The position numbers and the translations under genes were made by a program. Source: Euglena gracilis (lineage: Eukaryota). Taken from it: a stretch of DNA of 64,000 bases. The stretch covers positions 19,206,642 through 19,270,641 of the forward strand of contig CP154954.1 in assembly GCA_039621445.1 (NCBI GenBank), in the 5' to 3' direction. Shown piece after piece: positions 3,001 to 54,000 of the stretch (within the stretch, counting starts at the first letter, position 1; each line of letters begins with the position of its first letter). The notes under the pieces are model-generated. The model was not told the origin of the DNA. It worked only from the letters and a program-made list of their open reading frames with translations, and made no database searches.

Positions 3001-6000
3001 ATACCTCCCCCCCCCCCCTTGTCTAAGCACCGGAAAAGATGGGTAAGAACCGGGGGGGGGGTGCTTATTTTGCCAAAATATGGGTAAGAACCAGGGGGGT
3101 GGTGCTTGGACAAGGGTGGTGCTCAGACAAGGGGGGGGTAAGCTTCAAAAAAGGGGTTAAATATGCAATAAATTTGGAAATAAGCCAGAAATTTTGCCAT
3201 TTTCCCTCCATCCCTTTGTGGAGTATCATCATTTGAAAAATATTTCAGGCTGTGCTCGGCAATCTTGTGGCCGACACCAGCAGGGAATTTCTAATGGAGC
3301 GCCAGGGAGTGGGTGCAGCCGGCAGACTGGAAAAAAAGGGGCTGGCAGGAACCCCCCCACTTTAGGGGTGGGGGTTTGAACTGCCAGGCTGGACCTTGTT
3401 GGAAAAAGCTCAAACTGTGCTTGAATACATTTTTTTAGCCAAAATTTTTGAGGAAATCCTCAACAAAAAATATCAAAAAATCTCAGGCAGTGCATCTCGC
3501 ACTTAAGCTTTTTTCTTTGTCGATGTGCGCAAATGCGCACATTGACATTTTTTATTTTATTTACAAAAGTGACAAGACATGACCCCAAAAACCCCGAAAT
3601 CTGAGCAGGATGTGGTGGGGTGCCCCCGGACGCGGAGATGAAAACAAAGACTTTGGCAAATAGGTTGCCTAAGAGCTGGTGTCACTGCAGCATATGATTT
3701 ACATAACACCCAGCAGGTGTGTTTAGAACCCAACAATGGCCGTGTTATTAACTCAGAATATTGACTGAACGATTTGGTGGGGTGTGCACTATCCTGAAGC
3801 AATACCCTGAAAGCTGTGTGAGAAATTGGTGGTCGGTACAGGCAAATGTGCAAATATGTGGTGTGCGCAAATGCATAAAACAACCGTTAGCGTAACTGTG
3901 AAAAGGGCCATGTGCGCCAACTGCAATTGATGTGCTTGTAATATTGTCCAAGCGGTTGGTTGTGCAAATGCGAAAACAGACTTTTTGGGTCGGTTTGCAC
4001 ATCTGAGCACACCAACCTCGTGTGAAACTTAACACACGTGCCATTCAGAGGGTGTGGCACTACTGCAGTTTGGAAATCCTTAAATGCGAGATATTCTGTA
4101 GAATTTAAACACAACAGAATGACCAGCCTGCGGGCCCAAATTTGGGCATCGGCAATTGAAGCTGTGAAAAAAACATTTTTAGCCCCTGAAAAAATCAAAA
4201 TAAACAGCATTTTAAGATTTTATCCTGAAAAACTGAGTTTAGAAATGCCCTTCACCCTAGTACTTTGGTCCGAAAATGAGGCACAACACATTGGCTGAAA
4301 ATGGATTTGTCTGCTGACTTGAAAATCCCAGTGACCCGGGGTCACATAATGCAAATCTCGAACAGTCCATTGTATATGTGGCATGTGCACTTCCACTCCT
4401 TTCGTGACCAACTTCAAACACCTCCGCACGTGCAACATAACTTCAGAAAGCAAGCAAAGGGGTGGACCTACCACCTCACCTCCAGAGCATCACCTGGCGC
4501 TGGCAGTTTTCGCACAGGAAATGGGGGGAGGCGGTAATGGGCTTTTGGTGTTTTTGTTGGTGTTTTTTCAGCAAAAAAAATACACGCAATTCCCGGGAGA
4601 GCTGGGGTCAAGGATGAGAATCCGCTCATATTTTGTCCAGTCCCGCTCCTTCGCGCTCTCACCCTTGTAGCGCTAGTGCTCAAATTGGTTTTTGGTCGGT
4701 TTGTGAAAATGCGCACATCGACCAAAAAAAGTTCAAGTGCGAGATGCGAGATTTCCATCTCAGGGGATGCGGTGGTCCGGGGAGTGCAATAATGCAATAA
4801 AAAATGTGCATCAGGAAACCCCGCAACCACGGCCCTCTCCTCCGGCGGCACAGGCAGCCAAAGGCGCTCTGGGCGAACGTCGGGGACTCCCGATGCCGCT
4901 TCCGCGGGGCGACCGGGACGGGTTGGGCCGGCCCTGCCATGCCGGCAGCGCCTGGCTGGTCCTGGAGGCGCCTCACCAGCGGGGCCAGGCCCTTGCCGCG
5001 GCAAACGAGACGCTCGCGGCCGTCTCGGCTGAGACGGCCGCGGCAGGTGGCGCCGGCACCGTGGAATGACTGGATTAAGAACCTGTCGACTATTAATTTT
5101 TTGAGTGACTTTCACGCGTTTTGTTGTTGAAAAAAAAACACATTTCTCCGAGTTATATATAAATATTATATTGTATATTGTATATTGTATATTATATATA
5201 TATATATGATGTATTATATATGATATATTATATATTATGTATGATTTATGATATATGATATATTATATATTATGTATTGTATATTATATTATAAATGATA
5301 TATTATATATGATATTTGATATATTATACATTATATATATTATATATGATATATGATATATTATATGTGACATATTATATATTATACCTACCCCCCCCCC
5401 CGGGAAACTGTCACCTGACAGGTTGGCCAGTACCTGCCCGTTTCCCCGGCGGGACCCCTGCAGATTCCCGGGTAAGGCCTTTCAACGGAAAAATCAATGA
5501 AAAATGACCCTGACAGGTTGGCCGGTACCGGGGATGCTGACAGTTTCCCGGGCGGGACCCTGACAAGTTCTCGAGCATGAAAGTTTCCCGGGGGGGGGGG
5601 TAGGTATATGATTTCTGATATATGATATATTATAGATTATGTGTTAATATGTATATGTTATATTATATATATATGGTATATATATTAAATATTATATATA
5701 TATTATATATTATATATATTACATATATTATATGTATTATATATATTATATTATAGATAATATATTATATATTATGTATAATCAAAATTGCTTATTAAAA
5801 TACTTCAAACCCACTGCCTTTTCATTTCCCCTTTCCCCTGTTGAAGAGGGGTACTTTTCTGGTGGGATGTGAGAGTATGGAAAAAGCGAAGGTTGCATGC
5901 TTTGTTTGTTTCACATTGCACTTGGAAAGATAGAGACAGATAGGGACGGTTAAACGTGAAACTTGGCAGGGGAGGCAGTGGAAGGCGTGGTCCAGACTAG

Positions 6001-9000
6001 AGGGGGGCTTGGTACCCAACCACCCAATGGGGGGAGGGGGGCTCGGGGGACACACTCTGGGGGGCATAATTTCGAACTTCTCTCGGGTTCGGGGCAAAAA
6101 TAGAACAAAATCCCTGGTGAGCGAGGTGGAACCGCCCTCCCCCTGGCCAGCCATAAGCCATAAGAGAAAACCCTCTGCAGGAGTCTGGGAACAAATGCAA
6201 CTCAAAACACATCGGAAACTCAAAACAATCAAATGCTATTTGGCAAGAATGATACCCCCCCCCCCCCCCCCGCCAGAAACTCACCCAATACATCAGCGAG
6301 GTATGTGACAGACCATACGGACAGGACGTCCCGATCAACGACAATGAAGTTTCTGACCGAGCGGCGTCGAGGCCATATCTGGCAGGATCCGGACCTGGGT
6401 CCGGCAGGCTGGGGCCTGGGTAGCACCGCCTGGGGCTCCAGCACGCCGTGCCGCACAAGGTCCTCCTTCGTGGCCAGCGACAGCGCTTCCAGCGAGTTGT
6501 ACCTCGGGAGGGGGGCCGCCGAGGGTCCGCTTCCAAGGTACGGGGGTGAAAGCACACAAATACACAGCTCACACACATACTGGAAATTCAGTTCTTTTTT
6601 GTAAAATAAGAATATTCAGGTTTCTGCAGGAATTTTTTTTGCGCTTGATTTTTTTTTAAAAAAAATCATTTTTTTAAATTTTTTTTTAAAAAAAGAACAG
6701 CAGTAGCACATTCTTTTGCATCATAGGGGTGAGGGCAAGCTTTTAACACGCTTTCATCAGGCATAAGATACCCTTGGGAAGCTGCTTCTGTCTGAAGCGG
6801 CACAAATTGCCCAGCTATAAAACTGACAGGGCGAACTGAATTATCTCTTAAATATTTTTCAAAAAAATGCCCAAACCAACCCCCTTTTCTTGTCTGTTCC
6901 ACTTCCAATTCCGCCAACTCTCTTGGAAGGGGGAACAAAGGTTTCCAAAAAAAATTGTATTGTTTTTTCTTTGGTGTGATGTTGGGGTCGAAATTTGGTG
7001 ATTGAGAGCGATTAAAGCAGCTGCCAGGGCCCTCCTTTTAGAACACAGCAGGTGTTAGCGGTCTAAAATTAGGCTTTTGAGGAGCAAAGCAAGAACAGTA
7101 AAGAGGGACAAATCAGAAATGGGTGAACCCCCCCGACTGGTAGGTTGTGTCAATCAGAAACTTTCGGGGGAGTGTCAAAACAGCATCTCTTTCCCTCAAT
7201 ATCATCTTGAGAAACCGACCCATGTTTTTTTGGTGGTTTTTGCGGCATCACTTGTGAAACACCCGCCAACACAACAGGCAACAGCAACAACAGCAACTGA
7301 GACACGGTAATACCTACACATTGCAAGACGATACCAAAACACAAGCCTGGGAGAACGTGTCCGCCTGCGGGGTCCGAAAAAGGGTATGTGCCAATTGCTT
7401 AAAAGCCCAAAATCTTTTATGCCTTTGTCCTTTTTTTTACACGCATTATGCAGTGAATAATGGAAACCACAGAGACACCCCAATACCTATTCAAAATCAG
7501 GAGTTTTTCACCCAATTCAAACACTCCCATCATGACGCCAAAATTTTTCTGAAAAATTCTGGTGTAAAAAAACGAGACCTCAAAATAAGAAATTTGGGGC
7601 GCTTTTTGGGGTTAAAGAAACGGTCAAAGCATGTCAAAAAAAAAAAAACGTGGGGTGGGCAATTAGCGCCGCCTGAGACAGAGGTCAGAGGCAACTCCCA
7701 GCGAGGTATGGTATGCGTGAAATATGCGAGGTACAGTATGACGACTAATCCAATTAGCTTGTTATTTGCTTGATCATTCGCTCGGGTGATAAAAAAAATG
7801 TGAATTTTGTGAGCAGCTGCACCCCTGTTCAGCCCGGGCCAAAGGAATCGCATACAAGGACAAATGTAATCTATTCAGAAACGCCACCAGTTCCGCCGAT
7901 AACAGGGCATTGGCTACACGGCAGTTGGAATGGGGAACAGGCCATGCCCCCAGAGCACCTGTTGTTCAAAGACGGTGTCTGGGTATCCAACAAGGCGCCT
8001 TCCACAACCGACAACTGCAGGGACTACAACCATGTGCGGTTCAGCTGCAACGGAGGAACAGAAACCATGGACCCCGCTAAGCCCACAGCCAGGTTTCATT
8101 ACCCCAAGCAGACACATCGACCCACATGAACAAAACACAGGCACAAATGCTAAGGGCCTCTCTTTCCCCTTTCGGCACCTGGAGACAAACAATTTTCACA
8201 AGGCCCTGGGGGTAGGGTCGAACATGATGCCACCAACAGGGGGATCTTCTGCAAACCTCAGCTGTGGTGGGTACTAAAACCCAGGAGGGGGCAGAATCCG
8301 AAGAACAAAATATTCCTCGAAATTCAACGACCATCGTGGAAATGGTTCCCCAAAATGCCCCTAGCCTTACAATAAATAATTTAATTGCAATAAATATTTA
8401 GAAATACTTCTCTGGGGTATTTACTGACTGTGGGGGGTTTGGTCAAACAGGCTTTACCTGATTCCAGAACATGCCCGAAACCTTTTCGAGATTGAGAGAA
8501 ACAAATACCCAAAAGACACACAGCACACAAATGATCATGCGCAGAAGGTGATGAAGAGCTACTGGCAGAGCGGAGGCTTGGCCGGGGGCCTGTGGAAGTG
8601 GCGTCGGTTGCGGTGTCGGCGCCGGCGGCTGCGGGGCGGGGGCGGTCGGCCCGGGCTGGGCGGGGGCGGTGGGGTTGGGCTGGGCGGGGGCGAGGTCGTC
8701 CTGCCGGTAGTCCGCCACGTGGCACGCGTGGCGAGCAGCAGGGCTCCCGACCCGGACCATACAATTTTTTTACCGATTCCCGGGGGGGGTCACTCCACCT
8801 TTCAAAAAACCAGTCAGTCACTCCGAAAAAACCAGTCACCCGCCCGGGGGGGGGGTCAGCCAATGCTTAAGCAATTGACTGACCCGGACCCAACTTCGGT
8901 GGCTAACGTCAAGGGGGGACCGCTTCTCGCGCATGATCCCATTTAATAAAAAAACATCGCTGCGCATTGCGATAAGGCGGTATTGGGGGGTCCATCACCA

Positions 9001-27800: not shown

Positions 27801-30800
27801 CAACCTTTCAAAAATTCCTGTTATGATAATACTACCGTATATATTGTCTTAGAAGCTGCTATTAATAGAGATATTATCCTCGTATCATCCATAAATTACA
27901 TATATGATTATAAATATTTAAAATTTAAAAATTCATAATACTATGTTAAATTAAAATATTAGTTTGTTTGGAATAATAATTATAACTATAACTATAACTA
28001 TAATTATAATATATTATATAATTATAATTATAATTATAATTATAATTATAATTATAATTATAACTATAACTATAATTGTAATTATAATTATAAACTATAA
28101 TTATAATATTAATTGCAATTATAAATAATTATAACTAAATTATATTATATTATATAATATACAATATGTGAATATATTATATGCTATATTTTTTTAATTT
28201 AATTTATGTCATTATAATTATAACTATAACTATAACTATAACTATAACTATGACTATAACTATAACTATAACAATATAATCTAATTATAAGTATAATTGT
28301 CATTGCAATTATAACTAAAAGACATAAATTAAATTAAAATATATTATAATCCACATAAACGACAGAACGAAATCTGACTAAGAGGGCAAATAATGTATGC
28401 AGATTGAGAAGAGAGAGGAGAACATTCTTACAGGAGAGGATAGAGGAGAGGAGATAGAGATGACTAGAGAGGAGGAGAGGAGAATATTAGAGATCGAGGA
28501 TATTGAGGAGAGGATTAGATATTAATATATCTTCTCTATCTCTTCTTCTCTATTATCTTCTGAGTCTTCTCTTCTCTCTCTAGATTTTCCTCTTCTTTCT
28601 CTTCTTTCTTTCTTTCTCTTCTCTATATTTTATTCTTTCTTATATTTATCTATTCTTAGTATCTTTCTTTATATATTATTATATTATATTCTTCTCTCTT
28701 CTCTCTCTCTCTCTTCTATTCTCTTCTCTTCTATTCTTTATTATTTATATTATTTATTCTTCTTGTTATCTTATATATATTAGGTTATATTATATTATAC
28801 CTACCCCCCCCCCCAGGAAACTGTCACCTGAAAGGTTGGCCAGTACCGGGGACCCTAACAACTTCCCATACTTAAAGGTTGGCTGGTACCAGGGACACTG
28901 ACAGTTTCCCTGGCTGGACCCTGACAGTTTTTCGGGTAGGGCATTTCAAGGGAAAGTCAATGAAAAATGACCCTGACAGGTTGGCCAGTGCTGGGGACCC
29001 TGACAACTTCCTATACTGACAGGTTGGCCGGTTCCGGGGACCCTGACAGTTTCCCGGGTGGGACCCTGACAGGTTCTCGGGCATGACAGTTTCCCGGGGG
29101 GGGGGTATTATACTACATTATATATTATATTTTTTATATTAATTATATTGTATTATATATATATATTATATTATATATTATATCATATTATATTATATTA
29201 TATTATATTATATTATATATCTATTATAATTATATATATTATATATATTATAAGATTAGATTGATGTATTGTATTGTATTTTGTATTGTATCTCTTGTCT
29301 TATATTTCTATTCTATTATGTCTTATTTTATCTTTTCTTATCTTCTCTTTCTATCTTATTTCTCTTCTATTCTATTCTATATTCTCTTCTATTCTCTTCT
29401 CTTTCTCTTCTCTTTATTTCTTTCTCTTCTCTTCTTCTCTTCTCTTTCTTCTCTTCTATTCTCTTTCTTTCCTTCTTCTTCTCTCTCTTCTCTTCTCTTC
29501 TTTCTTCTCTTCTCTTCTCTTTCTCTTCTTTCTTTCTTTCTTCTATCTCTTTCTCTTCTTTCCTCTTCTTCTCTTCTTTCTTTATATTATATTTCTCTTT
29601 CTCTCTTTATATCTCTTCTATTCTATCTCTTCTATCTTTATATTATATTCTCTTCTCTTTCTTTATATTTTTCTCTTATATTCTGTTATTTCTTTTATCT
29701 CTTATATTTTATATTATTATCTTATATTTCTCTTATATTATATTTCTCTTCTTATATATATTATATTATCTTGTTCTGTTCTGTTATGTTAGATTATATT
29801 CTGTTGTTAGTTATGTTAGATTATTCTCTATTCTTATTCTCTTCTATTCTATTATATCTTTATTCTCTTATCTTCTATTATATTATATTATATTGTATTA
29901 TATTATATTATCTCTATGTATTTTATATATCTATTTATTGTGTTATATTTGTCTTGTATTATATTATATCTTCTTCTTATATCTATATTGTATGTATTCT
30001 TATTGTTGTATTGTATTCTATCCCCTATTATATTCTCTGTATCTTGTATTGTATGTCTTGTCTTGTGTTGTATTGTATTGTCTTGTCTTGTGTATTGTAT
30101 ATTGTCTTGTCTTGTATGTTGTTGTTTTTGTTGTTGTATTTATTATATTATATTATATATATTCTATTATTATTATATTATTCTATAGTATATTATATCT
30201 CTTATATTATATTATATTATATTATCTTCTCTTTCTCTTTCTCTTCTATTACATATAATATATCTCTCTATATGTATATGTAATTTATGTAATATATATG
30301 TTGTATATGTTACATCATGTGTTATTTAACATAATTGTATTCTAATACATTATTAAGATTGTAATATAACATAATACTTGTAATGTTATAATTACAATTA
30401 AATATTATAATTAAATATTATATTAAATACTATAAATACTATAAATATATAAATGTTTGTCTCTTTATAATTCTTGGGCTGTTTTTTCTTGCGGCCTATG
30501 TTAAAACAGGTGCAACACATTCTGTCACCAAAAGACAGTCGGTCACCAAAACAAAGACGCCTGGGGGGTCCTATTTTGGGGGGGCTTACTCCAAACAAGA
30601 AAAAAAACCATGGAGGGGTGTCCAGGCTCCTGTCTGCCTTCCTCGATGCACATCAGCTGCAGCTGCTCCGTGTTGCCACACCAGCCGGCGGTGCCGCTCA
30701 GCGCGGCATACATCTCCGCCGGGTCCTTCAGGGCGACCCGCTGCCCCGCCAGCAACGACCCCGCGCTCCGGTCGGCCGATGGTTTGCCGCCCTCCCCCTC

Positions 30801-35915: not shown

Positions 35916-36006
<91 letters not shown>

Positions 36007-37831
36007 GCGGGTACCGCTTGTCGCTACCGGGTTGTACCGCTGTGTGCGGAAAGAGAGAGACACGCGGGAAACCGCGGCCACCCCACAACGGGTGGAACAA
36101 AAGTCCCGGCCTTCCTTCCGGGCAACTAGCGCTTGCGAGCCCTTCGAGGCCAGGCGCATGGGACTGAAGCGCTTCCCCACACAGCCCAAGACGGCTAGGG
36201 GCTCGGAGTCCGGGGTGAGCCGACGCCGCCACCGCCCACGGCGAAAAGAATATGGGCTCCCGCCAGCTGACGCGGTTTACAAACATCAGCTAGGCCACCC
36301 CACGCAGCAACCGAGGTGGTGCTTCTCGGCCTGCAAGGACTCGAGCGCAAAGTCCCGCCCGCACAGCCTCCAGTGCAAGTCGGCACAGAGGAAAGAGCCA
36401 CGTGTGGGTGAAGCCCGTTACCCTCCTGGTGAGTCGCGGGTCGGGCTCCCCATACCTTGCTTGGGGTCGAAGCAAGTGGCTCTATGCGGGCTGTAGCTCC
36501 GGGAAGGCTGGCCCATCTCTGGGTGAAGGAGGCGGGCTGACGGGGTGCCAGGACCCCAATCGGCGCCGGCCGTGGACCAGAGTATCCCAGAGTGGTGACC
36601 ACCTTCACGCCAAGGAGTGGGGCGAGTGGCCCCCGGGGTCCCCGCTCCTGGCAACCGGAGTTCCTGGGCCGTTCCTCGGGTGACGGCAGCACCCGAGGGC
36701 CATGCAACACGCGGAGCCGCTCTCCAGGTGGGTGCCCACGGGGCTTTATCTCGCCTGCCTGGATGGAGCCGTGGGTGGCCCTGAGGGTCCGCATACCCTT
36801 GGGGTCCATGACTCGCCCACCCGCGGAACATGAGTGCCCCGTCACCAGGCGGTCTGCCCCCACCAGCCGGGCGTCGGGGGCATCGACAAGGAAGGCCCGG
36901 CTGGATCCGAAACCGCCTGGCTCTTTTACCGCTGTGTGCGGAAAGAGAGAGACACGCGGGAAACCGCGGCCACCCCACAACGGGTGGAACAAAAGTCCCG
37001 GCCTTCCTTCCGGGCAACTAGCGCTTGCGAGCCCTTCGAGGCCAGGCGCATGGGACTGAAGCGCTTCCCCACACAGCCCAAGACGGCTAGGGGCTCGGAG
37101 TCCGGGGTGAGCCGACGCCGCCACCGCCCACGGCGAAAAGAATATGGGCTCCCGCCAGCTGACGCGGTTTACAAACATCAGCTAGGCCACCCCACGCAGC
37201 AACCGAGGTGGTGCTTCTCGGCCTGCAAGGACTCGAGCGCAAAGTCCCGCCCGCACAGCCTCCAGTGCAAGTCGGCACAGAGGAAAGAGCCACGTGTGGG
37301 TGAAGCCCGTTACCCTCCTGGTGAGTCGCGGGTCGGGCTCCCCATACCTTGCTTGGGGTCGAAGCAAGTGGCTCTATGCGGGCTGTAGCTCCGGGAAGGC
37401 TGGCCCATCTCTGGGTGAAGGAGGCGGGCTGACGGGGTGCCAGGACCCCAATCGGCGCCGGCCGTGGACCAGAGTATCCCAGAGTGGTGACCACCTTCAC
37501 GCCAAGGAGTGGGGCGAGTGGCCCCCGGGGTCCCCGCTCCTGGCAACCGGAGTTCCTGGGCCGTTCCTCGGGTGACGGCAGCACCCGAGGGCCATGCAAC
37601 ACGCGGAGCCGCTCTCCAGGTGGGTGCCCACGGGGCTTTATCTCGCCTGCCTGGATGGAGCCGTGGGTGGCCCTGAGGGTCCGCATACCCTTGGGGTCCA
37701 TGACTCGCCCACCCGCGGAACATGAGTGCCCCGTCACCAGGCGGTCTGCCCCCACCAGCCGGGCGTCGGGGGCATCGACAAGGAAGGCCCGGCTGGATCC
37801 GAAACCGCCTGGCTCTTTTACCGCTGTGTGC

Positions 37832-37867
<36 letters not shown>

Positions 37868-40800
37868 GTCCCGGAGGGTGCCCCGTAGGTAGTGGACCAT
37901 TTTTCCGTCCCGCGCTGCCTTGTTTTTGGGGCCGGTTTTTTTCAGCCCCCCCCCCTCCCCCACCCCCGGGAGGGTGACGCAGAGCTCGTTTGTAACGGTC
38001 TGCACCACACAGAAAAGAGCGGTCGGGGACGAGGGTTGGCAGGGTCGTCACCCCTGACGATGCCCCACCTGCCAGCCTGGGGCGAAACCGCAACACAGAC
38101 TGACAACACACGCGCCCACACCGACTGACAACACACTTCCCCCACAAGCACACACTCTCGGGTCGGCAAGGAGTTCCCCCCAAGGAGTTCCCCCAGCAAC
38201 ACCGATCAGAAGAGAGAGAGAGAGAGAGAGCAACGAGGAGGACGCGGAGGACGGGGAGGACGAGGTCGTGGACGAGGCGACGGAGCCCAAGATCGACACG
38301 GCCATGGAGATCCCCGAAACCCGCGTGCCGGGCACGGAACTTGCCAGCCGTGCCCGTCATGCGGGTACCAGAACGAGGTGTACCACGCCGACGGGGCCCT
38401 GGGGGGTGGGGGGCTCGCCGGCGGTGGCATCCCCGGGCCCCCGGGCCCTGGCGCGGGGTCCGGGGGTGGCGTGAAAGGCGTGCGGAGCCCATGGGGGGAG
38501 CGCCGCCCCCCCAGCACGCACGCACGCACGGGGACCGCCACACACCCACCAGCAGGCAAGGGAGGGGGGAGGGGGAAGGGGCAGCCCAGCGCGCCAGACA
38601 GACGGGCAGCCACCGGAGGACCGGAGGCAAAGGGGAGGGGGAAAGGGAAGGGGCAGCCCAGTGCGCCAGACAGACGGGCAGCCACCGGGGGACAGGAGGC
38701 CAAGGGAGGGGGGAGGGGGAAAGGGAAAGGCAAGGGAAACCCACGTGGTAAAAGAGAGAGCGACGCGGGCAACCGCGGCCACCCTACAACGGGTGGAGGG
38801 AGAGTGACGGTGAGCGTCGCGCGGCACACGCCAGCCCGCGACGACAGGCCGCTCCCATACCCAGTCCACGGGAAGCACGCGAGGCAGGTGGAGAGGAGCA
38901 CGGGAAGGCAGGCGTGGACGTGGAGGTCATGGGAGGACTGGCACGTGAACGCCGTGCAACGGCGTTCCTGGCGCAAGAGCCCGATTCGGCGACTGCTGGA
39001 GCTCCGGCACGCTGAAGCACAAGCCAACGGAGACCGGGCCAATTACTTCTCCCCGGAGGCAGTGACCACCTGGCACGGGATGATCTACGGGGCGTACCAT
39101 TTCCCTACAGGGAAGTGGTACGTGGGCCAGACAGTCAACACCATCCGCCAGCGGGCACGAGAGCACTGGTACGCACGAAAGTCGGCGCGGGACTTCCTGC
39201 ACCTGGCGCTGGCAGACGACCCGGACCCGATGACCTGGCTGGCCCTGCCACTGGAGATCATCCCCAAGGAGCTGTGGCGATGTCCAGAGGCAGACCGACA
39301 AGCAGGGTGGCGGAAGAAAGGCTCTCCAGGGGTACCTGCCGATCACTGGCAGGGCGTGTCCCGGCACGCCGTCAATCGGGACCCCAACAAAACCCACCAG
39401 CACCATGACACAAAAAATCGCAGGCATGCCAGGCAATGACGGCCTGCCCGGCGCAGAGCCTCTGCCCCGGGTGGCAGGCGGGGCGCCAGCCTAAGAACCC
39501 GCAACCGATCTGGGGCGGATCTCCAGGGGTACCTGCCAATCATTGGCAGGGCGTGGCCCGACATGCCGTCAAGCGGGACGAAGGAGCAGAAGAACCGTGC
39601 CCCAGAAGCAGAAGCCAAGACCAGCACGACTGGAAGAAAGGGGCACGGATCGGGGAAGCAAAGAACCCCGGACCACCCCAAAGAGGGTACCAACAGCCCA
39701 ACCCAAAAGGGGGGGCCCAGCGAGGAGGACAACAAACAGGAAAAGGGCAGACACAGCCCAGGAAAGGAGGCAAGGGTGGCAAAGGAAACGTCACCCCACA
39801 AGGAAGCCGGCAGGGCCAACCCCAAGGAGAGGGCTGGCAAACAGCACAAAGCACCGGCCGAAAACGCCTCCAAAAGCGCCTCCAAGGGCTCCAACGAGCG
39901 CTGCAAGAAATGCAGCAAGAGCTCGACCAATGGCGGCGAGCCTCTACCAATCAGTCAAGAGGAGGGGGACGCCCCAAACAGCCGCAGCACCAGGCCGGCC
40001 CACACCGGGGCGGGGTTTACGCCGGGCAGTGAACCGGGGGTGACGCCGCCAAGGATCCCGCCCCCGGGGAGCCCGGGCGGGCCTGAGGACAGCGAGGGGG
40101 ACGCCCCGAGCCACGGACTGGCCCACACCGTGACGGGGTTTACGTCGGGCTGTGAACTGGGGGTGACGCCGCCAAGGATCTCAGCCCCAGGGAGCCCGGG
40201 CGGGTCCGTGATCGTGCTGCCAGGACCGGCCTCAGAGCCGAGGGGGGACGCCCCAAGCGACAGGCTGGCCCACACCGGAGCGGGGTTTACGCTGGGCGGT
40301 GAACCGGGGGTGACGCCGCCAAGGATCTCGCCCCCGGGGAGCCCGGGCGGGCCTGAGAGTTGCCAGCCCAAGGCCATGGAGACGGAGACAGACGCCCTCG
40401 AGGGGGTTGCAGCGCAGCCAAGCACCGCCTCCCAATCCCCCAGCGCCCCAACGGCCCCCACAGCCTCCCAAGGCCCCCCTCTCTCCAACCCGGACTCCGC
40501 CTCCCCAACCCCATGCCTCCCCCCACCCACCCGTGAGGTCCTCCAGGAGCGGGTCGTCATCGTCGAGAGGCAGGTCCCCGTTCCCGTGCGGGAGCCTGTC
40601 TTCGTGGATCGGGTCATCGAGCGGGTCGTCCCGGTCCCCGTGCAAGTCCCCGTGGAGGTCCGGGTCCCCATGCCCGTCCCCGTCCCCGTGGAGGTCCGGG
40701 TCCCCATCCCCATCTACCTCCCTCCCTCCGCGCCACAAGCCCCCTCCATCATGCAGAATGTGCATGTCAACACACTCACCATCGGCCCCTCCTCCTCCTC

Positions 40801-42077
40801 GTCTTCCTTGGCCCTCCTCCAAGGTCTCCCCATTCCCGCCATCGAGGCCCCCAACCGCCTCCTCCTCACCGCTCCCCCGCCACCACCCAGCGACACCACC
40901 GACGACGACACCTCTTCCCAAGGCCCCACGAAGAAGAGGAAGTTCACTTCGTTGAGTGAGTGGCCTGCCGAGTGGCGAGCCAAGTACGAAGAGTGGAAGG
41001 CGGTGCTGAAGGACCCACGACAAGCAGGACGAGGACAAACCATGTACGAATCATGGGACCCGGACCTGCAGAACCAGGTCTGGGCCTCGTGCGGCCCCCA
41101 GCGGCGGAGCATCATCCAAGAATGGCAAGAAGCCGCAGCAGTCCAGAACGTCGAGCGCCCCGCGGACCTCGAGCGCCAGACGCATGACTGGCATGAAGGT
41201 GCCAGGATCGGGGAGGCCGACCACCCCGGTCCAAGGCGCCACCCCCACGGCCCCCACCAGGGCCACCAACCCTCCGGGAGCCACGTCCCCGGAGCGAGAC
41301 CGAGCCACGTCCGGGCGGGTGGCAGGCAGCGTGGTGCCTGTGCCCCGCCAACCCCGTCCGCAGGGGAGCAAGCGAAGCGGGATTCGCCCCGGCCCCAAGC
41401 CCCTTGGCGACCCAACAGGGAAGCGGCCCGTGGGCGCCGCCCTGGGGATTCTTTTTCTTCAGCAGCCATGAGATTTTCCAGACCCTCTCGCCCTGGGAGT
41501 GCGCAGGGCAACCCACCCCGAGGAGAAGAAAGAGACCGAAGAGACGAAGGTGTCGCATGGACACCGGTGCAAAGCCGGCGGGGGGCAGCACTGCACAAGG
41601 AGATCAAGAGAATGGCGGACACCATCTCCGCCCTGAGCGCGGAGCTGAAGAAGCTACAAGAAAAATGCCAAGCTCAACGCCACTTTCGGGGGGAGTCGGA
41701 GCCCCCAACCACATCGAGACCACCGCGGAGGGGAGAGAGAGAGAGAGAGGGAGGCAAGGGCCGGCCCCCCTCCGATCCCCTCTCATCCCAACCCGTGGGA
41801 TCCCCTGCGAGGCCATCGTCGCGGCGGACGGCGGCGGCAGCGGCGGCAGCAGGAGACGACGACCAGCACAGACGCGGAGGCGGCGACATCGCAGGTGTGC
41901 CACCCCCGGCCTGCCGGAGCTGGTATCTCCGGCCCTCCAGTTCGGGCCGCACCGGCTGGAGGTGGGCGTGCAACCCGTGCGAGGCCTCCCCCCTCTGCGG
42001 CACCCCCCCACCTCCCTCCCCATCCCCTCCCATCCCCACCCCCACCCACACCCAGAATACCCCGTCCATACCAATCA

Positions 42078-42135
<58 letters not shown>

Positions 42136-50127: not shown

Positions 50128-51009
50128 TCAGACACAGGTCGCTTCGAACTGCATCCGGATGTGGACCTTCACCTCGGTGGTGGGGGACGGCAGGGTTTCC
50201 TTGTGGCTGACGACGAAGCCGAGGTTGCACAGGGGCAGGCAAACCGAGTCACCACATCGGCGGTTTGGGGGACATGGGGAAGCCAACAAACTGTGATCTT
50301 TGATACACTTCAGAGCTGCCAACCCTCATCAAACGCTGCAACCCAACCCCCCCCCCCCCCGGGAAACTTGTCACCTGACAGGTCGGCCGGTACCGGGGAC
50401 CTTGACAACTTCCTATCGTACCAAAGACCCTGTCAGTCTGACGGGCGGGGACCGTGACAGTTTGCAGGGTGGGGAATTTCAAGGGAACGTCAATGAAAAC
50501 CGACCCTGACAGGTTGGCCGGTACCAGGGACCCTGACAACTTCCTGTACTGACAGGTCAGCTGGTAACGGGGACCCTGACAGGTGCTCGAGCATGACAGT
50601 TTCCCGGGGGGGGGGGGTATTTCATGTGGAATAATAAGTCACTTCCAAGTTGGTGGGTTGGTGGGTGGAATGGTGTTGGAGCTTGGGGCAGGGGGTGCTC
50701 TTGGGAGTTGGTCGGAATTTTTTTGAAATATTTGCGGACTGGCTCAGCACCACACAGGACATGGCTGGGACAGGGGGAAAAATCACATTTCAAGACAAAA
50801 AAGCAGGGCCCTACCAAGCAACATAGGGGAAAATAACACAAAAATCGGTGGCCCATTTCAGAGTTCAACGGGACTGTTCACAGCAAGATATATATATATA
50901 TACATATATACACACACATATATATATATATATATATATTGATTACACCTGCCATATATATATTTATACACCTGCCATATATATATTATATATATATATA
51001 TACATATAT

Positions 51010-51041
<32 letters not shown>

Positions 51042-54000
51042 TGATTTTTTTTCAAAAAAATTTGAAATCAAGTGCAGGATTTGAAATCAAGTGCAAAAAT
51101 TCAAGAATATTTTTTGAAAACCAGCGCAGCACACTTGGGAAGGAAAACTTCCACAATTAAGGCTTGAATCAGGAGACAGAGTTTGGGTTAGACCCACTGC
51201 ACAGCACGGGGCACTCCCCCCGTCTCATCAGTTGTTCCATTTTGCACACACGAGAAGCGAACTGTTTTGTTTACCTTTGCATCTTCAGTGCTCATAATCT
51301 TTCAAAGAGAACCAATCTAGAAACACCCTACACAATTACGGCCGCATATTTTTTCTCTTCGTTTTTGTTTTCTCTCAACACACCATCACTGTAACCGCCC
51401 AGATTGTAATTTTTCCCGGTTGGATCCAGGGTGTCTCGGCCATTATTGTCAATTTTAACATGCCTTTAAGGCCAGCAATGACACCTCGGAGCGTTGGCAA
51501 CAGTTGATGTTTGGACACACATAGATGGTCATTGTCAGGAAGCCCCGCTTAGTGCCCAGCCGAAAATCGCATGAAAAAGCCCATTATAAGGCCCTTGGAG
51601 CCATCGGTGCCAGGGCGATAGCACAGCCCACACAAAAACCCATCCTCCTGCAGGGGGGAGTGCACTCTCCCCCCTCACACTTTGGGGGGTACGACCCCCC
51701 TTAAAAAGAAACCTTGGTGTGTGTCGGTGTCAGAAGCTTTTTGTTGAGGGTGGACCTGTCCTTTCTTAGTTCTGACCGACCCAAAGAGGTTTGGGGGGGG
51801 GACCACGTTTTGGCGACCGTGAATTGAGGGGCAGCCTGGGCGGCAGCAGGATTTCGTGCTCTCCCGGGAAGGCGCTGCAACCACCCAAATGGATGAGCTT
51901 GTTGAAGAACGCGCGGGGGATGAGGATGACGAAGAGGTGCACCGTGGGCATCAATTCACACTCGGGCCCTCGGGGGAGGGGGTGGGCACCTTTCCTGGGC
52001 CAAAACCCACCACAGAGTTTTCTGTCGCAGGACGTCGCAAATGCACGCATGTGGGGGCCGAATGATTCACTGTGGATACTTCGTCCTTCACTTTCAAGCA
52101 CCTATAGTTGACCCTAGATTTTTGCCATTTTCGGCCATTTTTTCCTATAGGGGTAAAATTACCTTAAAACCCTTTCATACCAACAATGCAGTAGGGAAAC
52201 TAAATAGTGGGACACGAATTTTGTGGGTCATACCCAACCCCCAGCTCCAAAGCCTCTGCCAGGCCATGGAATGTGGTGATGGTGTGTGCACACTGGCATG
52301 GCCCCAGCCTGCTCCGCTGCAGCACACTGTGATAAATTTAGGCCAACCCTATGCGAGCAGGTCTTTTCCATTTTCTTACCCTTTTGAACTCGAAGCTAAC
52401 CCAGCCGTAGGTAAGGGGACGAGGCGGCTCACACTGCAGTGAGTGGCATTTGGACCCCAACTTTGAACAATGCAAGTTGGCAATCCCTGTCAACGTGGAC
52501 TGATGGTGCGATGGCCTCGACATGCCGACCAATTTGGGCAAAAGGAGGCCAAAAATGGTAGTTTCGCCCAAATTGGTCGTCATGTCGAGGCCATCGCCCC
52601 ATCAGCCCACGTTGACATGGGTTGTTTACTTGCATTGTTCAAAGTTGGGGTCCCCTTACCTGAGGCTGGGTTTGCTTTTGCAATCCCAAAAAGGTCGGAA
52701 AATGGAAATACCTGCTCGCATAGGGTTGGACTGAATTTTGCACAGGTTGCTGCAGCAGATCTGGCTGGGGAACTGCTGCGTTCGACAATTTTCGACCATT
52801 TTCGGCCATTTTCGGGACCCCCACCTGTAGAGCCCAAAATTTCATTTCGGCCATTTTCGGCCATTTTTACTGTAGGTGCTTGTTAACTTTTCAAGGTGGA
52901 TTGTCGCAAACAACTTTGCGTTTGAAAGCCACCAACCCACATGCACTCACCCATCCAAAGCCAGCCGAAATTGGCCTAAAATCCTCAAAATCAATCACAA
53001 CCCTGCCTGGTTGGGACTAAAGTACCTGTGGGTTGGTGGGCAAGCCGCAAACCGGGGGGGAGGGGTCCACCTGCCCAAACCCACCCAGCCACTCTCGAAA
53101 TTCCACTCACCCATCCCCCATGGGGGGTCACGCAGGGATTGAGTGAATGGATGGCCCCGAAGGTCGGGTTGCCATCCTGGAGGCTGGTGGAGGTGAACCC
53201 TGACCAGACAAACTGCTTCAACCCCAGGGACTCCGGCGGGCACTGCGGCGATGGGATGGTTTCGTGTGCACTGTGTGTATCTACCCCCCCCCCCCGGGAA
53301 ACTGTCACCTGACAGGTTGGCCAGTAATGGGGACCCTGACAGTTTCCCGGACGGGACCCTGACAGGCTCTCGGGCATGACAGTTTCCCGGGGGGGGGGGT
53401 ATAGAATGCTGATGAATGCACCGGAAAAAAGGGCTGCAAAGGGCAATTGTGGGAGTGGGCGGTTCCCGCAATTGCGCAATTGGTTCTTCTGCACAAAGGA
53501 AATGGTCCATTCAAATTATGGATTTGCACAATTGTGTGGTTATCAATAATTGTACATGAGCAATTAGAAGGATTTTTGTGTTCAAAGGCTGGGACACTTT
53601 TAGTTTGGGTGGAAATGGTCTGTTTCCACTCAACAAATCTTTCTAAAGTCAAAATTTATGGGTATGATGAATACATTTTGCAAATCTAGGTGCCGGTTAT
53701 TGGTGCTGCAAAAAAAAACGGTGCTTTGTGACTTCGCCCACCAAATCAATGCCCCCCAATTTTGGGGCCCAAATTTTGTCCCGAAAATGTGGGTACAAAT
53801 CTTAATATCTGACAAAAAATTATGGAAAAAATCGACGTTTCTGGATCATCTGCCGTCCAAAAAAAAAAGCAAAATTTCAATAGAAAGTGCAATAAATGAC
53901 CCCAAAAGGGTTCTTGGTTGCTATTTTGGGTCCTATGGGAGTTGGAAAATTTTCGAAAAAAATTAAGCAGCTGTTACACTCCCAAACATCACCTCCCTCA

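Follow-up and report, generated by a model that had tools for sequence, protein, structure and literature searches.

The window, by which we mean the whole stretch of 64,000 nt of Euglena gracilis contig CP154954.1 analysed here, contains a hammerhead ribozyme motif at 38019-38091, 200 nt before a copy of a Penelope-like element (PLE-1). The initial annotation proposed that it could define the 5' end of the ORF-bearing transcript and that two ribozymes of different speed, this one and a variant upstream, could partition transcripts. The features discussed below are listed in Table 1, and genome-wide counts refer to the 2.37-Gb assembly of 46 contigs.

Table 1. Features around the hammerhead motif (window coordinates)
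Feature	Position	Strand	Basis
Two head-to-tail 892-bp family-B units	36050..37833	+	Arrays elsewhere, e.g. C2:6.73 Mb
Variant hammerheads of family B	36848-36917 and 37740-37809	+	Predicted cuts 36854, 37746
(GA)15 target tract between families B and A	37836..37865	+	Sequence
5'-truncated copy of the family-A unit (unit positions 308-661), with the fixed 3' end of the family	37865..38217	+	99.4% identical to units of tandem arrays (354 nt compared)
Type III hammerhead motif of family A	38019..38091	+	Pairs verified, descriptor match, 732 exact genome copies
Loop I (38034-43) x loop II (38068-77), 10-bp complementarity	38034..38077	+	9 Watson-Crick pairs + 1 G-U
Predicted anti-core hairpin (38044-50 with 38055-61)	38044..38061	+	MFE fold -36.0; hides catalytic core
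(GA)10 tract comprising the 3' end of A and the target DNA ahead of PLE-1	38211..38230	+	Sequence
Copy of autonomous PLE-1 with an internal deletion (unit 1-1096 fused to 5512-6136)	38231..39937	+	BLAST to full 6,288-bp unit
PLE-1 junction signal (GA run + two hairpins), common to B and C, not A	38751..38797	+	
3' part of autonomous PLE-2, likely helper of A	39935..42086	+	3' end + junction

The motif has type III topology, with loops closing stems I and II and an open stem III. Stem III is formed by 38019-23/38087-91 (5 bp), stem I by 38025-32/38045-53 (8 bp, A38050 bulged) and stem II by 38062-67/38078-83 (6 bp, with G10.1-C11.1). The core reads C38054-U-G-A-C-G-A38060, with GAAA at 38084-87, and the predicted cut site is C17 at 38024, preceded by GU (GUC). 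This agrees throughout with CUGANGA/GAAA, A15.1-U16.1 and an NUH site, plus one extra U (U38061) after A9. An extra U occurs in plant satellite RNAs. Loops I and II are complementary, predicting a tertiary contact, and their duplex has a computed energy of -18.6 kcal/mol. The initial annotation had described the CUGACGA/GAAAC core, the GUC site, the 10-bp loop pairing and the extra U between A9 and stem II, and each of these is present, every pair included. It had also placed the cut site of the variant 278 nt upstream, which is correct (37746), and had noted a kissing architecture common to both ribozymes; the loops of the variant pair over 10 bp too.

A structural descriptor of the motif matches the window exactly three times (cuts at 36854, 37746 and 38024). 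In 200 dinucleotide shuffles of the whole window there was one match, and none with a loop pairing of at least 7 bp. The search with Rfam hammerhead models suggested at the outset gave no match to the motif at gathering score or at E<=10, likely because of the long loops, and among the metagenome matches listed 0 of 119 stretches fit the descriptor. On the evidence of the sequence, the hammerhead identity and kissing-loop architecture of 38019-38091 are confirmed, and cleavage is predicted. Watson-Crick pairing between stems I and II in place of a non-canonical contact is given for about 40% of hammerheads by Perreault et al. (2011, PMC3088659), and similar pairing is described for HDV-like type III motifs of toad and termite (PMC7936874). 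The pairing here involves 10-12 bp between two terminal loops, in contrast with the 4-6 bp described for those pseudoknotted hammerheads. Family A differs further in that its pairing uses all of loop II, the extra residue is a U and an anti-core hairpin competes with the ribozyme. An extra nucleotide between A9 and G10.1 is reported to slow the CChMVd(+) ribozyme moderately (PMC1636495).

The motif lies within a copy of a repeat that we call family A. Together with its flanks it is found at 1,127 candidate places in the genome, the best of which are arrays with a period of 661 bp (C1:29.85, 29.17 and 17.46 Mb). The 661-nt unit (GC 0.62) is present in (GA)n tracts both as monomers truncated at the 5' end and in tandem, and the tandem units have one hammerhead each, an arrangement characteristic of retrozymes. 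There are 732 exact copies of the 73-nt ribozyme (control, 0), among which the single copy in the window is ordinary, and 549 exact 3' ends of the family run into (GA)n. Among the family-A ribozymes compared, 47 of 51 are identical and the other four carry changes that break pairs or the core, none of them compensatory; the copies are too young to show covariation inside the family. Apparent variants at loci L071 and L086-L088 were considered as covariation and rejected, as they share flanks and have broken pairs and represent one decayed insertion that was duplicated. At locus L110 no ATG frame on the strand of the ribozyme exceeds 98 aa. On the opposite (minus) strand of L110, ATG frames in family-A arrays reach 205-259 aa, and family-B arrays have an antisense frame of 327 aa, probably as a result of composition.

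The differences between the two window ribozymes had been read as structural covariation within one element. This does not hold, because the two motifs belong to separate families, A (661 bp) and B (892 bp), which are independent genome-wide. Family B has 1,111 candidate places and a core of U3-C4-G-A-C-A8-A9, i.e. U3-A8 plus U4C; U3-A8 covariation has been described as a natural variant. A third family, C, was found outside the window by pattern search (2,511 matches against 310 in the control). It has a 272-bp tandem unit (C1:10.23, 10.91, 16.56 and 23.53 Mb; loci L074-L093 and L116-L118), a canonical type III core, a 12-bp bulged loop pairing and the PLE-1 junction described below. When the pattern was set to leave out A and C, it matched 447 times, fewer than the 710 matches of the control, indicating no further large families with a canonical core. 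All three families keep stems I-III and the 10-12-bp loop pairing with different letters, and family C changes a stem III pair from C-G to U-A. Covariation is seen when A, B and C are compared with one another and not within A. Their units are 272-892 nt long with 62-67% GC, and the hammerhead is 88-194 nt before the 3' end. Separately, there is a short piece at 36004-36051 that starts like the tail of B and runs into the last bases of B before the first full unit; it resembles the 30-40-bp extensions described for Penelope-like elements.

Two families of autonomous Penelope-like elements, PLE-1 and PLE-2, are represented downstream of the motif. A, B, C, PLE-1 and PLE-2 all end in a short GA run, after which tandem copies have two hairpins. 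We aligned the 100 nt after the GA run between families and compared the scores with those of 300 shuffles. The tail of A aligns with that of PLE-2 (z=11.4, 0/300 shuffles) and not with that of PLE-1 (z=-0.4). The reverse is seen for B and C, which align with PLE-1 (z=9.1 and z=7.5, respectively) and neither of which aligns with PLE-2. Between A and PLE-2, 94 of 134 junction columns are identical, both hairpins are retained with paired changes, and identity is 76% over unit positions 1-101. Family A therefore has a 3' end similar to that of an autonomous family over a junction of ~130 nt. These homologies suggest that PLE-2 mobilises A, for which it is the likely helper, and that PLE-1 does so for B and C. 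PLE-2 may not be the only helper, as L128 and L267 hint at a further A-like helper end. A further 3' end resembling those of PLE-2 and A is present at L128:1960, L267, L279 and L291 (oriented), followed in L128 by a related tail, which suggests another family using a PLE-2-like junction.

The intact PLE-1 unit is 6,288 bp long and encodes a GIY-YIG-like motif, a CxC motif and a reverse transcriptase (RT). The RT matches Pfam RVT_1 in both families (PLE-1, E=4.6e-08; PLE-2, E=1.9e-04), and both have the order N-terminal GIY-YIG, CxC, RT, which is that described for Chlamys elements (PMC8557442). By this motif order PLE-1 and PLE-2 are of the Chlamys type. Pfam gave no GIY-YIG match in either family, so the nuclease assignment rests on the motif. 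The 18 homologues found are all unnamed or 'hypothetical protein'. The window copy of PLE-2 is 97% identical to an intact copy over 39935-41788 and ends at (GA)26 (42081-42132). A search for the hammerhead core plus stem II found none in two copies of PLE-1 and two of PLE-2, and the same search finds A, B and C. As the helpers are without ribozymes, the hammerhead looks like the parasite's own addition.

Several other features of these elements were observed. The window PLE is chimeric, with an internal PLE-1 deletion of ~4.4 kb (39314-39320) and a switch from PLE-1 to PLE-2 (39934-39937), which suggests RT template switching between families. At L101/L102 (C5:3.48 Mb), L147 and window 38129-39439 the reading frames were followed across units. 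The 6,288 bp of PLE-1 correspond to 2,096 codons, and in one copy the frame continues through the unit junction without a stop for 3,300 aa. In PLE-2 the spacing of 5,523 bp corresponds to 1,841 codons and there is a 1,855-aa open frame; spacings in other copies are not divisible by three. An open frame of 25,172 aa at C24 was rejected as a simple-repeat artefact, all six frames being open. There are GEAxxPGP motifs in both families, and a Val/Pro-rich repeat of the PLE proteins resembles euglenid articulins. PLE-1 also has a duplicated 63-nt motif (39320-39382 and 39517-39579, 89% alike), each copy of which is upstream of a 2A-like or similar region. By eye, it forms a hairpin with a paired G-C to A-U change between the copies and a possible pseudoknot; it had no Rfam match.

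Taken together, these data lead us to think it probable that family A works as a retrozyme that is copied by PLE-2 into (GA)n, and that the window copy merely travels beside PLE-1 and plays no part in the ORF. The ribozyme would cut multimeric A transcripts to 661-nt units, which would be ligated into circles. The GIY-YIG nuclease of PLE-2 would nick (GA)n DNA, and its RT would bind the two hairpins 3' of the GA run, prime on the GA template and run round the circle through the sealed cut site to give arrays. A fold that hides the core may prevent re-cutting of the circle, with the pseudoknotted fold forming transiently. In the published model for retrozymes, circRNAs likewise serve as templates for multimeric cDNA, and PLEs are regarded as the likely helpers (PMC7229834, PMC7761336).

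The core-hiding fold is seen in the predicted minimum free energy structure, in which the 3' strand of stem I pairs with the core to form the anti-core hairpin, predicted to stack on the loop-loop helix. It has an energy of -36.0 kcal/mol; the nested ribozyme has -26.5, to which the kiss would add -18.6, loop strain being outside the model. Steric constraints may keep two closed loops from forming all 10 bp of the kiss. Pseudoknot-free ensembles give the hidden-core fold a probability of 1.00 in circle, linear unit and window context alike, and stems I-III a probability of 0.00 in the circle and the linear unit. Folding of prefixes has the hidden-core fold emerging once loop II is made. In family B a similar 5-bp hairpin hides the variant core, matching the variant letters, and folding found no anti-core hairpin in family C. 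There is precedent for inactive alternative folds in viroids and also for Watson-Crick pseudoknots that speed hammerhead cutting. For the barley yellow dwarf satellite ribozyme, Miller and Silver (1991) are reported to have described an alternative tertiary structure that attenuates it.

The positions at which insertions end bear on the template. At 22 family-A loci the 3' ends meet at unit position 661, 194 nt past the cut site, except at two diverged loci (L071 and L072). The 5' ends are at unit positions 27-605 and none is at the cut (468). This sample is biased because the loci were found by the ribozyme; in addition, L100 and L146 are the same insertion and L109/L112 and L114/L115 look duplicated. 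We also searched the genome for (GA)5 joined to A inside the ribozyme, which gave 105 matches. Among the 100 of these listed, representing 19 places, none starts at 38025, one starts at -1 and two at +3 with GA microhomology, in comparison with the 549 exact 3' ends of the family. Linear cut monomers would stack 5' ends at 38025. That the insertions of A do not stop at the cut site suggests that the template is a circle or an uncut multimer, and the absence of 5' ends there fits an inactive ribozyme as well as it fits a circle.

An alternative is that A is a non-autonomous, PLE-2-dependent element like MRC1, multiplied from uncut linear read-through transcripts or by RT template jumps, with the hammerhead mostly locked in the core-hiding fold and cutting rarely or never. 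The dominance of the hidden-core fold in pseudoknot-free predictions, and its appearance once loop II is made, is consistent with this, as is the lack of insertions starting at the cut site among the matches listed. The ribozyme-less PLE-1 and PLE-2 are also found in head-to-tail arrays, and so are non-autonomous elements of the Chlamys clade, which is described as mostly without canonical hammerheads, with exceptions in Chara and spike mosses (PMC8557442); arrays therefore do not prove circles. However, a complete hammerhead with a long loop pairing is retained in each of three families whose bodies are unrelated and which depend, as suggested above, on two helpers; this is hard to explain without selection for cutting, and family C has no anti-core hairpin. 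We regard this alternative as unlikely.

Sequencing runs were also searched for words of family A. None of those listed (24 rows) is on record as RNA, and 20 of the 24 rows contain half the family-A words or more. Contigs from four runs cover all 29 bins of the A unit. Run X1 gave a closed contig of 691 nt (661+30), and the same back-joint is present in the large run X18. The closed contig fits a circle or a tandem equally, because tandem DNA also gives a back-joint.

A second alternative is that the ribozyme serves to free the element RNA from host transcripts by linear 5'/3' processing, and that circles are not templates. Such a role has been proposed for the ribozymes of LINE-type elements (PMC7761336). 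Cut monomers would, however, halt the RT 194 nt from the primer; 0 of the 19 junctions listed are at 38025 and most of the insertions examined extend past the cut site. We consider linear processing very improbable as the sole role.

Finally, the neighbours of the motif were surveyed. There are 34 places in the genome where PLE-1 starts at the junction seen in the window, 33 of them outside it. Directly upstream of these 33 starts there is B at 4, PLE-2 at 3, A at 2 (one without the ribozyme) and none of these at 24. Within 1 kb upstream the core of A is found at 2, that of B at 6 and that of C at 1, and among 20 loci with the PLE-1 endonuclease one has the ribozyme of A upstream. Neighbours come in different orders at different loci (A-B, B-A, PLE2-A, C-PLE1). 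The region 35918-42132 therefore consists of insertions made independently into a single (GA)n microsatellite, and the ribozyme is not the leader of the ORF. Within the window, (GA)10 separates A from PLE-1, and the first Met of the downstream frame is at 39080, 1,055 nt past the cut, where a GIY-YIG-like motif begins in a PLE-1 copy that has no RT. Given this variable order, the proposal that two ribozymes of different speed partition transcripts is unsupported. The reading in which the PLE ORF transcript owes its 5' end to this ribozyme, which would partition transcripts with the slower variant, is hardly tenable and is largely refuted by the copy survey: the motif does lie close to PLE-1, a stop-free frame runs from 38129 into it (38129-39439) and the A-PLE-1 order recurs at L050/L295, but PLE-1 and PLE-2 units have no hammerhead of their own and the junction of A matches PLE-2, not PLE-1. 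The host flank contains a dispersed repeat family based on 43 nt (5509-5602, 28827-29108, 50374-50624 and 53265-53401), which is unrelated to the hammerhead.

In the open-licence literature searched, neither hammerheads nor retrozymes nor Penelope elements are reported from a euglenid, and we have compared family A with systems from other organisms. The animal non-LTR retrozymes (Cervera & de la Pena 2020, PMC7229834), for which PLEs have been proposed as helpers, are non-coding and, like A, B and C, are repeated head to tail, each unit having one hammerhead, in copies that range from monomers to multimers without an LTR. In Xenopus, retrozymes are reported to have similarity to PLE pLTRs (Li et al., preprint 10.64898/2026.07.22.740005). 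In contrast with the non-LTR retrozymes as described, the euglenid families are type III rather than type I, have units of 272-892 nt rather than ~170-400 and have 62-67% GC rather than under 45-50%; A itself, at 661 nt and GC 0.62, falls outside all three limits. The helper here has no hammerhead, the two-hairpin junction assigns each family one helper, and targeting of (GA)n is strict. The plant LTR retrozymes (Cervera et al. 2016, PMC4918200) share with A a type III hammerhead, a length of ~700 nt and a GC content above 55%. Unlike them, A shows no LTR pair and consists of head-to-tail units with fixed 3' and variable 5' ends, the fixation of the 3' end in a microsatellite and the 5' truncation being as in target-primed insertion; its likely helper is a PLE and not Ty3/Gypsy.

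Family A also resembles non-autonomous Chlamys elements such as MRC1 (Craig et al. 2021, PMC8557442), with which it has in common multicopy head-to-tail insertions, 5' truncation, microsatellite targeting and a 3' end similar to that of an autonomous family that has GIY-YIG at the N terminus and CxC. It differs from these elements in having a full type III hammerhead and in its target, (GA)n and not (CA)n or (C)n. On sequence criteria, then, family A behaves like a non-LTR retrozyme but lies outside the type I, size and GC limits of that class and has the characters of non-autonomous Chlamys-type elements; it joins both kinds.

This locus bears on which enzyme mobilises non-LTR retrozymes and on how it would be primed on a circle; a 2020 review noted that the repeats show no motif indicating a helper (PMC7761336). 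What is added here is the pairing of parasites with helpers and the 5'-end test. A short junction signal divides the three parasites cleanly between the two helpers and lends itself to a direct swap experiment, and in the 10-bp kiss with its competing anti-core hairpin nature provides a compact system for testing whether a hammerhead is accelerated or locked by long loop pairing. We tentatively suggest that three protein-free circular RNAs with long-kiss type III hammerheads might parasitise two ribozyme-less PLEs, each carrying inside the circle a helper-specific GA template and two-hairpin signal. A telomerase-related RT would start internally and copy by rolling circle straight into (GA)n, and a fold switch would turn the ribozyme off in the circle. 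If true, this would be the first retrozyme system in which the helper, the priming site and the target are all readable from sequence.
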